64,000 nt of DNA from positions 535,990-599,989 of the forward strand of contig CAXXRG010000002.1 in NCBI GenBank assembly GCA_963676545.2. Direction: 5' to 3'. Position numbers and translations under genes: made by a program. Shown in pieces: positions 3,200 to 45,737 of the stretch. Numbering within the stretch: position 1 is the stretch's first letter; each line of letters opens with the position of its first letter. The stretch is from an uncultured Martelella sp. Its GTDB lineage: Bacteria > Pseudomonadota > Alphaproteobacteria > Rhizobiales > Rhizobiaceae. The notes under the pieces were generated by a model. That model did not search any database. It was not told the DNA's origin and saw only the letters and a program-made list of their open reading frames with translations.

Positions 3200-3337
3200 G
3201 CAATCCCTGCGGGCCGTTTGTTGTAGGCTGAAGGGGCTGCCTTCCTATCCGGTGTCCGCCACCCCAGGCGCAAGTCTACTGGTGTCCTGCTGAGCGATCA
3301 GTCGCGTTTGTTTGATGGCACTCTCCCCCTCCACCTG

Positions 3338-3367
3338 CGTCATGCTCGGGCTTGACCCGAGCATCCA
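3338..3367 (+). repeat. CGTC-tagged REP palindrome, copy 1 (forward)
   Basis: CGTCATGCTCGGGCTTGACCCGAGCATCCA; stem ATGCTCGGG/CCCGAGCAT. Confidence 0.92.
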
Positions 3368-3422
3368 GGCGATTCAAGTCATAGAATTCAGGATAATTTC
3401 TGCCGCCGGTTGTCGTGCGGCC

Positions 3423-3452
3423 TGGATCCTCGGGTCAAGCCCGAGGATGACC
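3423..3452 (-). repeat. CGTC-tagged REP, copy 2 (reverse; doublet with copy 1)
   Basis: TGGATCCTCGGGTCAAGCCCGAGGATGACC. Confidence 0.92.
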
Positions 3453-3630
3453 CGGCATGGGCGGGTAGGGTCTTGTTCAGCCGAAGCCGGAGAGAGGGCG
3501 ATATTCTGAAATCCATGGAAGACGCAAAATCCAGCAATTCCAAAGCTTTCGCAACTATAAACCGGACACCGGCGCCTCAAGGCCGGCATGACGGAGGTGA
3601 GCGGTGAAGACCTCCATCAGCGAACTTCCA

Positions 3631-6784: not shown

Positions 6785-7956
6785 TTACGGCCTATGTTCT
6801 CCGTTCGCTCGACCGCAGGGTTTCGATTGCGATTGCCATACTTTTCGGCATCGCCCTGCTGGTGCCGGTGCTGAACCTCGTCATTCCTGCGGCAAGCCCG
6901 TTTCACCTGCCGACCTATCTGGTGTCGCTGTTCGGCAAATATCTCTGCTATGCGCTGCTGGCGCTCTCGCTCGATCTGGTCTGGGGTTTCTGCGGCATTC
7001 TCTCGCTCGGCCACGGCGCCTTCTTCGCGCTCGGCGGCTATGCCATGGGCATGTATCTGATGCGCCAGATCGGCCCGCGCGGCGTCTATGGCGATCCGAT
7101 CCTGCCGGACTTCATGGTCTTTCTGAACTATCAGGAGCTGCCGTGGTTCTGGCACGGCTTCGACATGTTCTGGTTCGCCATGCTGATGGTGCTGCTGGTG
7201 CCCGGCGCGCTCGCCTTCGCCTTCGGCTGGTTTGCCTTCCGGTCAAGGGTCAACGGCGTCTATCTCTCGATCATCACCCAGGCCATGACCTATGCGCTTC
7301 TGCTCGCCTTCTTCCGCAACGACATGGGGTTCGGCGGCAATAACGGCCTGACCGACTTCAAGGACATTCTCGGCTTTTCCGTGCAGGCCGATGGCACGCG
7401 CGCGGCTCTCTTTGCAGCCTCCGCCATCTTCCTTGCCATCGGTTTGTTCATCGCCTCGGCGATTGTCCGCTCCAAATCCGGCAAGGTGCTGGTCGGCGTG
7501 CGGGATGCCGAGAGCCGGGTGCGGTTTCTGGGCTACCGGGTGGAGAACTACAAGCTCTTCACCTTCGTCGTCTCGGCCATGATGGCGGGCGTTGCCGGTG
7601 CGCTCTACGTGCCGCAGGTCGGCATCATCAATCCGGGCGAATTCGCGCCGGCCAATTCCATCGAGGTCGTCATCTGGACGGCGGTCGGCGGGCGGGCAAC
7701 GCTGATCGGTCCGATCATCGGCGCGATCCTCGTCAATGGCGGCAAGACCATTTTCACCGGGCTTTTCCCAGCCTTCTGGCTGTTTGCGCTCGGCGGCCTG
7801 TTCGTCGCCGTCACCCTGTTCCTGCCCAAGGGCATTGTCGGCACGATCTCCGACCGGTTCAGAAAAAAGAGCAGTGACGCCGGCGCGCGCAATGAGCGTT
7901 CCGAGGAGGCTGAGGCCGGCATGGATGTCAACCCGAGCGAGGAGGGCGCACGATGA
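6781..7956 (+). CDS. urtC: Urea ABC transporter permease UrtC
   Basis: LDLVWGFCGILSLGHGAFFALGGY, GGNNGLTDFK motifs; ATGA overlap with urtB. Confidence 0.93.
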   Translation: MITAYVLRSLDRRVSIAIAILFGIALLVPVLNLVIPAASPFHLPTYLVSLFGKYLCYALLALSLDLVWGFCGILSLGHGAFFALGGYAMGMYLMRQIGPRGVYGDPILPDFMVFLNYQELPWFWHGFDMFWFAMLMVLLVPGALAFAFGWFAFRSRVNGVYLSIITQAMTYALLLAFFRNDMGFGGNNGLTDFKDILGFSVQADGTRAALFAASAIFLAIGLFIASAIVRSKSGKVLVGVRDAESRVRFLGYRVENYKLFTFVVSAMMAGVAGALYVPQVGIINPGEFAPANSIEVVIWTAVGGRATLIGPIIGAILVNGGKTIFTGLFPAFWLFALGGLFVAVTLFLPKGIVGTISDRFRKKSSDAGARNERSEEAEAGMDVNPSEEGAR

Positions 7957-8711
7957 GCCCGATGGAAAAACGCGCGAAAAGCCTGCTTTATCTCGACAAT
8001 GTCTCGGTGTCCTTCGATGGCTTCAAGGCGCTGAACGGCCTCTCCTTCGTCATCGAGCCCGGCGAGCTTCGCGCCGTCATCGGCCCGAACGGGGCCGGCA
8101 AGACGACGATGATGGACATCATCACCGGCAAGACGCGGCCCGATACGGGCGAGGTCTTCTTCTCCGATACGATCGACCTGACGCGCAAGGACGAGGCCGA
8201 CATCGCCCAGCTCGGCATCGGCCGCAAGTTCCAGAAGCCGACGGTCTTCGAAAGCCATACGGTGTGGGACAATCTGGAACTGGCGCTCAACCGCAGGCGC
8301 GGCGTGTTTTCCACGCTGTTCTACCGGCTGACGAGCGAGGACCGGACCCGCATCGAGGAAATCCTCGAAACGATCCGCATGAGCGCGCGCAGGCAAGAAC
8401 TTGCCGCCAACCTTTCCCACGGCCAGAAACAATGGCTGGAGATCGGCATGCTGCTGGCGCAGGAGCCGAAGCTTCTTTTGGTCGACGAACCGGTTGCCGG
8501 CATGACCGACGCGGAAACGGTGGAGACCGCGCGCCTCCTGCGCGAGATCGCCGAGACCCGCGCCGTCGTCGTCGTCGAGCACGACATGGGCTTCGTCCGC
8601 GACCTCGGCGTCAAGGTCACCTGCCTTGCCGAAGGCTCCGTGCTGGCCGAGGGCTCGATCGATTACGTATCGAACGACCCGAAGGTCATCGAGAACTATC
8701 TGGGGCGGTGA
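7953..8711 (+). CDS. urtD: Urea ABC transporter ATP-binding protein UrtD
   Basis: GPNGAGKTT Walker A, LSHGQKQWLEIG, LLLVDEP. Confidence 0.93.
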   Translation: MSPMEKRAKSLLYLDNVSVSFDGFKALNGLSFVIEPGELRAVIGPNGAGKTTMMDIITGKTRPDTGEVFFSDTIDLTRKDEADIAQLGIGRKFQKPTVFESHTVWDNLELALNRRRGVFSTLFYRLTSEDRTRIEEILETIRMSARRQELAANLSHGQKQWLEIGMLLAQEPKLLLVDEPVAGMTDAETVETARLLREIAETRAVVVVEHDMGFVRDLGVKVTCLAEGSVLAEGSIDYVSNDPKVIENYLGR

Positions 8712-8754
8712 GGAATGATGGCGCGCGATAAGCAGATGGCTGCGCAAGATCGCC

Positions 8755-8784
8755 TGGATCCTCGGGTCAAGCCTGAGGATGACG
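8755..8784 (-). repeat. CGTC-tagged REP, copy 3 (reverse)
   Basis: TGGATCCTCGGGTCAAGCCTGAGGATGACG. Confidence 0.92.
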
Positions 8785-8874
8785 CGGTTGGAAAGGGCAG
8801 TGCTGGAAAGACATTCTCACGATACCTGTCTTCCGCAGAGACCTCTGTTTCGGCGACGAAACCCCCTCCTCATG

Positions 8875-8904
8875 CGTCATCCTCGGGCTTGACCCGAGGA
8901 TCCA
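8875..8904 (+). repeat. CGTC-tagged REP, copy 4 (forward; 11 nt from GIY-YIG stop)
   Basis: CGTCATCCTCGGGCTTGACCCGAGGATCCA (consensus). Confidence 0.95.
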
Positions 8905-8915
8905 GGCCGCCACGT

Positions 8916-9200
8916 TCAGAGAAAGCGTTCATAAAGATCATCCCAGCCCGGATTGAGATTAGAAACAAGCGTGATCTTCCACGCCCGGTTCCAGCCTTTC
9001 AGCGCCTTCTCCCGCGCAATCGCACTGCCGATCTCGAAGTGTTCCTCATACCAGACGAGCCTGTTGCAGCCGTAGCGGCTGGTGAAGCCTTTGATCAGTC
9101 CTTCGCGGTGCTCGAAAATACGTCGTTCAAGATCGGAGGTTACGCCGATGTAGAGCGTGCCGTGCGGTCTGTTGGTAACGATGTAGACGTAACCGGCCAT
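8916..9200 (-). CDS. Stand-alone small GIY-YIG nuclease family protein (94 aa)
   Basis: GYVYIVTN...LYIGVTSDLERRIFEH...AIAREKALK...NPGWDDL: both Tyr motifs plus conserved Arg, His, Glu, Asn. Confidence 0.9.
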   Translation of the reverse strand: MAGYVYIVTNRPHGTLYIGVTSDLERRIFEHREGLIKGFTSRYGCNRLVWYEEHFEIGSAIAREKALKGWNRAWKITLVSNLNPGWDDLYERFL

Positions 9201-9219
9201 GGCGTTTTGCCGTGTTGCC

Positions 9220-9249
9220 TGGATCTTCGGGTCAAGCCCGAAGATGACA
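9220..9249 (-). repeat. CGTC-type REP, copy 5 (reverse; 19 nt before GIY-YIG ATG)
   Basis: TGGATCTTCGGGTCAAGCCCGAAGATGACA; compensated stem ATCTTCGGG/CCCGAAGAT. Confidence 0.92.
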
Positions 9250-9411
9250 CGGGCGGGGATGGCGCGGCAAGAGCGGCTGCGGCAGAGCGGGTGACATTCT
9301 CACTTACTGATGCGGGAATCTTGCAGCAGGGAGCCATAGTCCTGTTTGTGCTGTTTGCAAGTCTGTCTTTCGCAATGTCATCGGTTGAAGAAACGCGTTC
9401 CTCTCCCCGCG

Positions 9412-9441
9412 CGTCGTCCTCGGGCTTGACCCGAGGATCCA
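9412..9441 (+). repeat. CGTC-tagged REP, copy 6 (forward)
   Basis: CGTCGTCCTCGGGCTTGACCCGAGGATCCA. Confidence 0.92.
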
Positions 9442-9508
9442 GGCGACCTGCCGTCGCATCGGCCAGACCGCTCCGACCTCCTCACCCTTTCCAGAGAGAA
9501 CACTCGCC

Positions 9509-10204
9509 ATGCTGACCATCGATAACGTCAATCTTCACTATGGCGCGGCGCAGGCGCTGCGCGGTGTTTCGCTTTCCGCCGAGATGGGCAGGATCACCTG
9601 CGTGCTGGGGCGAAATGGCGTCGGCAAGTCCTCGCTGTTGCGCGCCGTCACCGGCCAGCATCCGACATCGGGCGGTTCCATCACCTTTCAGGGCGAGACG
9701 CTGGACGGGCTGGCGCCCTATCGCCGCGCCAAGCTGGGTGTTGGCTATGTGCCGCAGGGGCGCGAGATTTTTCCGCTGCTGACGGTCCGGGAAAATCTGG
9801 AGACCGGCTTTGCCCCGCTCAAATCGGCCGACAGGAACATTCCTGACGACATCTTCAGCCTGTTTCCGGTGCTGCAGTCCATGCTGTCGCGCCGGGGCGG
9901 CGATTTGTCGGGCGGCCAGCAGCAGCAGCTCGCCATCGGCCGCGCCATGGTGACCCGACCGAAGATTCTCGTCCTGGATGAGCCGACCGAGGGTATCCAG
10001 CCCTCGATCATCAAGGATATCGGCCGGGCGATCCGCTACCTGCGCGATTCAACCGGCATGGCCATTCTGCTCGTCGAGCAATATCTCGATTTCTGCCGCG
10101 AACTGGCCGATCAGGTCTATATCATGGACCGCGGTGAGATCGTGCATGAAGGCCCGGCCGAAACGCTGGATACGCCTGAAGCCCGCCGCCACCTGACGGT
10201 CTGA
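9509..10204 (+). CDS. urtE: Urea ABC transporter ATP-binding protein UrtE
   Basis: GRNGVGKS, YVPQGREIFP, LSGGQQQQLAIGRA, DEPTEGIQPSII. Confidence 0.94.
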   Translation: MLTIDNVNLHYGAAQALRGVSLSAEMGRITCVLGRNGVGKSSLLRAVTGQHPTSGGSITFQGETLDGLAPYRRAKLGVGYVPQGREIFPLLTVRENLETGFAPLKSADRNIPDDIFSLFPVLQSMLSRRGGDLSGGQQQQLAIGRAMVTRPKILVLDEPTEGIQPSIIKDIGRAIRYLRDSTGMAILLVEQYLDFCRELADQVYIMDRGEIVHEGPAETLDTPEARRHLTV

Positions 10205-12025: not shown

Positions 12026-13738
<1,713 letters not shown>

Positions 13739-21023: not shown

Positions 21024-21053
21024 CGTCACCCTCGGGCTTGTCCCGAGGGTCTA
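21024..21053 (+). repeat. CGTC-tagged REP, copy 7 (forward)
   Basis: CGTCACCCTCGGGCTTGTCCCGAGGGTCTA; compensated stem ACCCTCGGG/CCCGAGGGT, loop CTTGT. Confidence 0.88.
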
Positions 21054-21149
21054 AGCACGTACCAGCACGATTGGCGTTTCGGGTCAGAAAAGGTCACAAA
21101 AAACGGCCTTGCTGACTGACCATGGACACCGCTCGCGTGGAGAGGGGAT

Positions 21150-21179
21150 TGGATCCTCGGGACAAGCCCGAGGATGACG
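21150..21179 (-). repeat. CGTC-tagged REP, copy 8 (reverse; doublet with copy 7)
   Basis: TGGATCCTCGGGACAAGCCCGAGGATGACG; loop is the reverse complement of CTTGT. Confidence 0.92.
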
Positions 21180-45482: not shown

Positions 45483-45584
45483 TGGCGGCGTGTTCTTTCG
45501 GCGCGGCGGCGTTTCTCTGCCACCTACATGATTTGGTTCAATCTTGCCCTGGCGAGGTTTTTGCGGCCTTTTCTCCCTCCGCAG

Positions 45585-45614
45585 CGTCATCCTCGGGCTT
45601 GACCCGAGGATCCA
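45585..45614 (+). repeat. CGTC-tagged REP, copy 10 (forward)
   Basis: CGTCATCCTCGGGCTTGACCCGAGGATCCA (consensus). Confidence 0.95.
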
Positions 45615-45707
45615 ATCACCTCTCTTTGCGATCGGCGTATCGGTCGCACCGCCATATTGCGCCGTCGAGCTCGAACAAACCCGCGTTGCTGCTGTGGTTT
45701 GCGGGGT

Positions 45708-45737
45708 TGGATCCTCGGGTCAAGCCCGAGGATGACG
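45708..45737 (-). repeat. CGTC-tagged REP, copy 11 (reverse; doublet with copy 10)
   Basis: TGGATCCTCGGGTCAAGCCCGAGGATGACG. Confidence 0.95.

Follow-up and report, generated by a model that had tools for sequence, protein, structure and literature searches.

The locus between positions 8875 and 9249 of a 64,000-nucleotide stretch of DNA from an uncultured Martelella sp. (the whole stretch is called the window below) very probably consists of a gene of the Ssn nuclease family, here designated ssn, and of the CGTC-tagged hairpin repeats that are its recognition sites, which flank the gene and are also scattered through the genome. The protein belongs to the family by sequence and by architecture, its gene is under purifying selection, and the hairpins have been retained at one site across genera. 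The partnership between such an enzyme and such repeats is already published (Chenal et al., Nat Commun 2025, PMC11893778, March 2025), and the present locus is one of thousands of members. What it adds is modest: a syntenic frame of four hairpins, a unit-gene-unit structure and a fixed spacing of 18-19 nucleotides (nt) between hairpin and ATG. The central cassette has the following parts.

8916 to 9200, minus strand: ssn, encoding a 94-residue single-domain GIY-YIG nuclease of the Ssn family (open reading frame (ORF) call and Pfam PF01541)
9201 to 9218, minus strand: 18-nt leader between hairpin and ATG, sequence GCAACACGGCAAAACGCC
9219 to 9249, minus strand: inner hairpin repeat 5' of ssn, with its tag, TGTC, distal to the gene, sequence TGTCATCTTCGGGCTTGACCCGAAGATCCAG
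8875 to 8905, plus strand: inner hairpin repeat 3' of ssn, beginning 10 nt past the stop codon, with its CGTC tag distal to the gene, sequence CGTCATCCTCGGGCTTGACCCGAGGATCCAG

Ssn proteins are single-domain GIY-YIG nucleases of about 94 residues, and their genes are flanked by a repeat termed the Ssn-related motif (SRM) (PMC11893778). The ssn ORF of the window has 285 nt, starts with ATG and encodes 94 residues beginning MAGYVYIVTNRPHGTLYIGVT. Pfam GIY-YIG (PF01541) matches residues 3-75 with an E-value of 5e-17, a match that identifies the superfamily domain only. As in the Ssn family, no further domain is present, either in the Pfam assignment or in the AlphaFold model (pLDDT 95), which is a single compact domain with the GIY-YIG fold. 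The best structural matches to this model in the PDB are 1zg2, a UPF0213 NMR model, and Slx1; the PDB holds no solved Ssn structure, and these UPF0213 NMR models and Slx1 are the nearest to one. Residues Y6, Y17, R27, H31 and E64 are invariant or nearly invariant across 30 homologues, which bears out the statement of the first-pass annotation that the catalytic-type residues are intact. Three of them, Y6, Y17 and E64, occur at the same numbering in the published SsnA of Neisseria meningitidis, where the substitutions Y6A, Y17A and E64A abolish cleavage (PMC11893778). The closest relative of the window protein, at 93% identity, is found in Martelella lutilitoris, a species to which the source organism is close. 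A homologue from a Neisseria sp. with NTS-like repeats nearby is 63% identical over 86 residues (E 1e-42) and, taken as a proxy for the N. meningitidis SsnA, lies within the E < 1e-10 by which the Ssn paper recognises homology. The window contains one copy of ssn.

The biochemistry of the family comes from four purified proteins. SsnA, which also has 94 residues, binds the SRM of Neisseria, known as NTS (CGTCATTCCCGCGMAVGCGGGAATCYRG), solely as single-stranded DNA (ssDNA) and on the tagged strand only. It cuts a few nucleotides upstream of NTS and is inactive on double-stranded DNA (dsDNA), on the reverse strand and on RNA, and cleavage close to the repeat that flanks their own gene was shown for three other homologues (PMC11893778). 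The family is assigned to CDD cd10448 (GIY-YIG_unchar_3) (PMC11893778). Repeats of the kind seen in the window had been described earlier as CGTC-REPs, which are short, tagged, intergenic stem-loops, found mostly in Alphaproteobacteria and often as close inverted dimers (Di Nocera, De Gregorio and Rocco, BMC Genomics 2013, PMC3733652). The 2013 survey reported no dedicated transposase for them, as the first-pass annotation had correctly stated. Because the Ssn paper does not cite this survey, the equation of SRM with CGTC-REP is a link made here and by the first-pass annotation; it is a minor linking remark and no discovery.

The first-pass annotation had placed a 285-nt GIY-YIG ORF between two inverted repeats, at distances of 11 and 19 nt. 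This arrangement is confirmed, with the distances becoming 10 and 18 nt once the repeats are taken as 31-nt units (repeat 8875-8905, 10 nt, ORF, 18 nt, repeat 9219-9249). A 28-nt core of the repeat has nine matches in the window at three mismatches or fewer, against none expected from shuffled sequences; those around ssn lie at 8876-8903 (minus strand) and 9221-9248 (plus strand). A tenth, more divergent copy at 21024 is recovered by the hairpin and motif scans. Every copy folds into a stem of 9 bp capped by a loop of 5 nt; seven of the ten carry the tag CGTC, and the others TGTC or GGTC. The stem of the 9219-9249 hairpin carries a compensatory change from C-G to T-A, and its fold as DNA has an energy of -11 kcal/mol (z -3.6). 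One copy of the doublet at 3338/3422 likewise has a compensatory stem change. Eight of the ten copies form inverted pairs, 53-162 nt apart. In being tagged, short palindromic stem-loops (20-40 bp) that occur in many copies, often as inverted dimers, the repeats of the 64-kb window have the properties of CGTC-REPs. Assembly contigs of the same organism end at the repeat, with many different flanks. No Rfam family was found that covers the hairpins. The copies beyond the cassette, and the larger units that they form, are as follows.

8754 to 8784, minus strand: outer hairpin repeat on the urtD side (repeat match, hairpin scan and tag-plus-stem scan)
9412 to 9442, plus strand: outer hairpin repeat on the urtE side (repeat match, hairpin scan and tag-plus-stem scan)
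8752 to 8907, no strand assigned: left composite unit, made of a hairpin (minus), a spacer with GACATTCTCAC and CTGTCTTCCGCA, and a hairpin (plus); a direct repeat of the right unit
9217 to 9444, no strand assigned: right composite unit, in direct repeat with the left one and with a spacer about 60 nt longer (self-comparison)
3338 to 3452, no strand assigned: gene-free hairpin doublet, tags outward, 53-nt spacer (copies 3338 and 3422)
21024 to 21179, no strand assigned: gene-free hairpin doublet, tags outward, 94-nt spacer (copies 21024 and 21149)
45585 to 45737, no strand assigned: gene-free hairpin doublet, tags outward, 91-nt spacer (copies 45585 and 45707)

The published SRM pattern, HGTCWYN(0-2)YYVSBRHN(0-5)WNVSBRGN(0-2)RNCYNB, fits the flanking repeat at 8875-8905 exactly and the one at 9219-9249 with a single mismatch. 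Applied strictly it matches two of the ten repeats in the window. At one mismatch or fewer all ten fit, but the window then has 27 matches where 12 are expected. Because the pattern is this loose at one mismatch, the ten repeats were identified by their shared sequence and by the tag-plus-stem scan.

Comparison of the region with itself shows that the gene lies between two directly repeated units. The blocks that repeat between them are D1 (82 nt, 76% identity), D2 (47 nt, 81%) and D6 (11 nt, 100%), and the spacers of both units share GACATTCTCAC and CTGTCTTYCGCA. Thus ssn sits in a unit-gene-unit arrangement with four hairpins. In almost every copy in the window a C-rich tract (CCCC, CTCC) stands just 5' of the CGTC tag, in the region of the predicted enzyme cut. 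Examples, 5-20 nt outside the tag, are found at 3322-3337, 8860-8874, 9250-9262 and 45566-45584, and other Rhizobiaceae loci show the same tract. A repeat unit of about 50 nt, rather than 30, is therefore possible.

The association between gene and repeat extends well beyond Martelella. Among 80 loci with homologues from across bacteria, the flanks of 88 gene copies were scanned; an SRM lies within 120 nt of 56 copies, on both sides in 20 of them, where background density predicts 0.029 per flank. The enrichment is about 15-fold, and it ranges from 13- to 17-fold across phyla. In Rhizobiaceae and Martelella, 13 of 15 copies are accompanied, within 40 nt, by one or both hairpins in the canonical orientation, eight of them by both, against an expectation of 0.006 per slot. 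The two repeats of one gene are a median of one edit apart, compared with 11 for repeats of different genes (0 of 2000 permutations). Repeat distance also rises with protein distance (Mantel r 0.28, 0 of 2000), although shared host phylogeny contributes to this correlation. Compensatory variants of the stem, CTTCGGG/CCCGAAG, GCTCGGG/CCCGAGC and CCCAGGG/CCCTGGG, occur among the loci. The pattern that, by the first-pass annotation, would have spoken against its idea, in which most homologues would lack flanking repeats and repeat-rich genomes would lack the gene, is seen neither here nor in the published data, where 71% of homologues have a flanking SRM (42% on both sides) and a homologue is present in 81% of the genomes that have more than 200 SRMs (PMC11893778). 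The proposal that the GIY-YIG protein is the cognate enzyme of the CGTC hairpins thus agrees with the biochemistry of the homologues (PMC11893778) and with the association replicated here. As the missing enzyme of these repeats, the idea is right in outline and already published.

Several of the loci have unusual arrangements (L-numbers are those of the loci compared). Rhizobium bangladeshense has a tandem pair (L001:2335-3272) whose proteins are 95% identical and whose upstream flanks are duplicated. A Parcubacteria contig (L062:3043-7900) holds three copies within 5 kb, and L060:5001-7682 holds one full copy and two truncated copies of 60 residues among about eleven hairpins. The same neighbouring gene stands downstream of the nuclease in Pararhizobium sp. 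(L005) and upstream of it in R. lusitanum (L015), which would be consistent with the cassette having inverted between its oppositely oriented hairpins.

The array as a whole occupies the 797 nt that separate urtD from urtE in a cluster of urea-transporter and urease genes, with ssn antisense to the operon. This antisense setting, like the outer hairpins at 8754 and 9412, had been missed by the first-pass annotation. The neighbouring genes are these.

7953 to 8711, plus strand: urtD, urea ABC transporter ATPase, the left neighbour, on the strand opposite to ssn (Pfam ABC_tran)
9509 to 10204, plus strand: urtE, urea ABC transporter ATPase, the right neighbour (ORF call and homologues)

UrtD is 97.6% identical to the protein at the same position in M. 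lutilitoris. Homologues named UrtE are found in Martelella spp. at 90-92% identity, and the UrtD and UrtE proteins are 97-98% identical to those of M. lutilitoris. An ssn gene lies antisense between urtD and urtE also in M. lutilitoris, M. mangrovi, Ectorhizobium quercum and Rhizobium rhizogenes, and the copies at this site group together in a rough tree. In the five syntenic genomes the ratio of nonsynonymous to synonymous divergence (dN/dS) of ssn is 0.04-0.2, with dS of 0.9-2.3, so that synonymous sites are near saturation. The gene is under strong purifying selection. Across the same genomes the hairpins are 90-96% identical (90% for the 9219 copy, 96% for the 8875 copy and 93% for the 9412 copy), compared with 56% for third codon positions and 43% for the remaining intergenic DNA. 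The 8754 hairpin is present in four of the five and is 92.5% identical. The hairpins have been kept either by selection or by continual gene conversion.

Outside this group, what lies between urtD and urtE varies among Rhizobiales. In six further genomes that were compared (L083-L088), the two genes abut in Agrobacterium vitis and Phyllobacterium. The gap is 225 nt, with neither repeats nor ssn, in M. alba, and 204 nt, with a different C/G-rich repeat, in Ensifer adhaerens, while in R. bangladeshense it holds an unrelated 172-residue ORF that has no Pfam match. In M. mediterranea (L083:2223-2500) the same site is occupied by one hairpin(minus)-spacer-hairpin(plus) unit and no gene, which could be either the product of deletion between the units or the state before insertion. 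Hairpins away from the urt site turn over between sister species. M. lutilitoris and M. mangrovi lack the 3338/3422 doublet at the orthologous position (window positions 3238-3573 compared), where M. lutilitoris has a single hairpin of another subtype, GTCACCCCGGACTTGATCCGGGGTCCA (L089:15698-15724). This subtype, the type found beside the Parvibaculum homologue (L011), does not occur in the 64-kb window. Neither a target-site duplication nor a clean empty site could be established in the urt gap of the six genomes or at the 3338 site of the two sister species; the intergenic DNA is too diverged for the boundaries of an insertion to be fixed. Nine other Rhizobiaceae copies of ssn occupy at least eight different genomic contexts, and the cassette has therefore moved over long timescales.

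The first-pass annotation had supposed that the protein recognises the hairpin either in DNA or as an RNA-bound complex. The first part agrees with homologues, which recognise their repeats as ssDNA; the second is unsupported, since SsnA neither binds nor cleaves RNA (PMC11893778). By homology with these proteins, the Martelella protein would bind the folded hairpin as ssDNA only, on the strand that reads CGTCAT-stem-loop-stem-ATCC, and would make a Mg2+-dependent cut about 3 nt 5' of the tag. In this cassette, cuts are predicted immediately outside each inner hairpin and on opposite strands: at about 8872 on the plus strand and at about 9252 on the minus strand. The locus would be an old cassette that has become 'domesticated' and is now inherited vertically, and not an element that still actively hops. 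In the cell, Ssn may process hairpins that are exposed in ssDNA during replication, during the entry of conjugative or transforming DNA, or during repair, and such processing would modulate recombination at repeat-marked sites. The host, a Martelella, is marine or plant-associated and is not known to be naturally competent; the transformation-restriction role of Neisseria may therefore not apply to it.

Several points weigh against this reading. The published cleavage data come from non-rhizobial homologues, and the Ssn authors themselves call the biological role outside Neisseria unknown (PMC11893778). The homology comparison used the Neisseria sp. homologue (L023) and not the N. meningitidis protein itself. 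The stem of the window hairpins, CCTCGGG/CCCGAGG, differs from that of Neisseria; the position of the cut is an extrapolation, because Ssn specificity depends on sequence as well as on shape. The conservation of the hairpins could reflect gene conversion with other copies in the genome rather than selection at the site. As for expression, no RNA runs were found, and the two runs in which the region occurs resemble DNA assemblies, with contigs that end at the repeats.

The distance between the upstream hairpin and the start codon is a further feature of the family. Of 40 upstream hairpins on the same strand, 19 end at a distance of 18-19 nt from the start codon, and these come from taxa whose stems differ; loci with this spacing are the window, where the 9219-9249 hairpin ends 18 nt before the ATG, and L001, L005, L006, L008-L011, L027, L036, L042, L050, L054 and L073. 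The hairpin loop carries CTTGAC, which we take to be the -35 consensus of rhizobial promoters. Among the 19 cases of fixed spacing, position -11 is A in 13 and position -7 is T in 11, and L042 has a perfect TATAAT there, while a good -10 is lacking in the window copy. Such a geometry would suit a promoter that overlaps the hairpin and a leaderless or near-leaderless ssn mRNA. Such an mRNA would explain the missing Shine-Dalgarno sequence, for the 18-nt leader contains no Shine-Dalgarno-like run, as already stated by the first-pass annotation. Its further claim, that there is no room for a promoter, is doubtful given the CTTGAC of the loop and the fixed spacing. A scan of 8650-9560 for consensus promoters gave no match. 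No intrinsic terminator is called at either inner hairpin, and the two terminator-like sites of the region lie elsewhere.

How the repeats and the gene came to be arranged in this way allows several explanations. One of them, a tentative possibility, is that Ssn is to CGTC repeats what RAYT proteins are to GTAG REPINs, a nuclease domesticated long ago and passed on vertically, whose nicks at the outer tags of hairpin doublets generate and maintain the repeats. The RAYT/REP/REPIN system (Nunvar 2010; Bertels and Rainey 2011; Ton-Hoang 2012) resembles the present one in that the enzyme gene lies between inverted repeats which are recognised as ssDNA hairpins, in its inverted doublets, and in a gene that is usually single-copy and vertically inherited. 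It differs in its enzyme, a HUH/Tyr transposase that becomes covalently joined to DNA, and in its GTAG tag, in contrast to the hydrolytic GIY-YIG domain and the CGTC tag found here. The window protein is not itself a RAYT or part of a REPtron: its sole domain is GIY-YIG, and it lacks the HUH motif and catalytic tyrosine of IS200/IS605-like enzymes. If Ssn is such a counterpart, the repeats would spread by nick-primed copying or recombination rather than by classical transposition, and the unit-ssn-unit repeat with its four-hairpin frame at urtD-urtE would be a fossil of such an event. If true, this would answer the question left by the 2013 survey of what moves CGTC repeats, with a chemistry unlike that of any known transposase.

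It is unlikely that the cassette is an active autonomous element, that is, a hairpin-ssn-hairpin transposon in which Ssn acts as a transposase that also moves the gene-free doublets as derivatives resembling miniature inverted-repeat transposable elements (MITEs). The architecture is that of an insertion sequence, as the Ssn authors themselves point out (PMC11893778). The cassette has the orientation of the doublets at 3338, 21024 and 45585, as the first-pass annotation had noted; in the hairpin and tag-plus-stem scans all tags point outward, so that the predicted cuts bracket the doublets as well. The at least eight contexts of the nine other Rhizobiaceae copies, the tandem pair of R. bangladeshense and the absence of the 3338 doublet from two sister species would also suit mobility, and no transposase was found for CGTC repeats by Di Nocera et al. 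(PMC3733652). The window and the compared relatives, however, show none of the multiple near-identical copies, no recognised target duplication and no clean empty site of the kind expected of an insertion sequence, and the 64 kb contain one copy. Nor do the spacers of the doublets retain any remnant of the leader or trailer of the cassette; they share nothing convincing with either, and an origin of the doublets as MITEs by deletion was rejected. GIY-YIG nucleases hydrolyse DNA, and we know of no covalent intermediate or strand-transfer activity in them. This hydrolytic chemistry, together with a copy that has kept its syntenic site in five genomes saturated at synonymous positions, leaves the 'autonomous REP element' of the first-pass annotation unsupported.

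GIY-YIG domains are typical of homing endonucleases, and a homing-type selfish cassette may also be considered. The nuclease would nick the hairpins of a doublet, repair would copy the gene in, and the hairpins would serve as homology arms, so that the gene would parasitise the repeats rather than spread them. The polarity of the cassette is exactly that of a doublet, the unit-ssn-unit arrangement is what would be expected if a circular or copied segment had recombined at a pre-existing unit, and M. mediterranea has a single unit with no gene at the same site. The last is explained equally well by deletion between the direct repeats, and just one of the four doublets in the window contains the gene. 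Homing enzymes of the I-TevI type share the catalytic domain and the compact cassette, but they have a separate DNA-binding domain and a dsDNA target, whereas the 94-residue protein is the catalytic domain alone; its match to the homing endonuclease model TIGR01453 is weak (24 bits, with a cutoff of 56), and it was not counted as a GIY-YIG homing endonuclease. The characterised Ssn proteins do not cut dsDNA (PMC11893778). A homing origin is thus very doubtful, and it is disfavoured along with classical transposition because GIY-YIG enzymes act by hydrolysis and dsDNA is not cleaved.

That the hairpins are ordinary REP-type RNA stabilisers or terminators beside an unrelated small gene is scarcely credible, for even though REPs accumulate in intergenic DNA and 3' of genes (PMC3733652) and the variable urtD-urtE junction carries different inserts in relatives, coincidence or plain regulation is already contradicted by the association statistics (the flank enrichment across phyla, and a repeat type that matches between the two flanks and tracks protein distance), and the fixed spacing to the start codon, the direct biochemistry on homologues (PMC11893778) and the lack of a terminator call for either inner hairpin also stand against it.

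Within the Ssn family, the locus is most like the SsnA-NTS system, with the same length, domain and catalytic residues, a gene bracketed by CGTC hairpins that are repeated in the genome, and a repeat that fits the SRM pattern. Its distinctive features are the stem noted above with the loop CTTGA, where Neisseria has the stem TTCCCGCG/CGCGGGAA, and, inside the urt operon, a unit-gene-unit direct repeat with four hairpins. The CGTC-REP superfamily shares the short intergenic stem-loops with CGTC at one end and the close inverted dimers; it differs in that the 2013 survey reported no dedicated enzyme (PMC3733652). The UPF0213/YhbQ-type proteins (1zg2, BH0048; 1ywl, EF2693) and Slx1 have the same fold and size and give the best structural matches, but the UPF0213/YhbQ-type proteins are only about 30% identical to the window protein, with a sequence E-value of 0.005. 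To our knowledge they have no association with hairpin repeats. Slx1 needs Slx4 and cuts branched DNA.

Two observations concern the urease genes near the locus. An Rfam match to 5_ureB_sRNA (RF02514) lies antisense inside the urease gene cluster (12180-12465, minus strand, 93 bits, E 6e-23), and it may simply be conservation of the urease coding sequence read on the opposite strand. The Rhizobiales bacterium IMCC20636 (L027:3611-5285) has a homologue of 57% identity with canonical flanking hairpins beside ureD, a second cassette next to urease genes, although in a different arrangement.

The interpretation offered by the first-pass annotation is, overall, partly supported. Reading the raw sequence alone, it re-derived a real partnership between enzyme and repeat that was first published in 2025. 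The urtD-urtE locus of Martelella and other Rhizobiaceae is a convenient natural system, since the cassette can be traced at one site across genera. The questions to be put to it are whether Ssn merely cuts the repeats or also propagates them, and what Ssn does where the transformation role of Neisseria may not apply.

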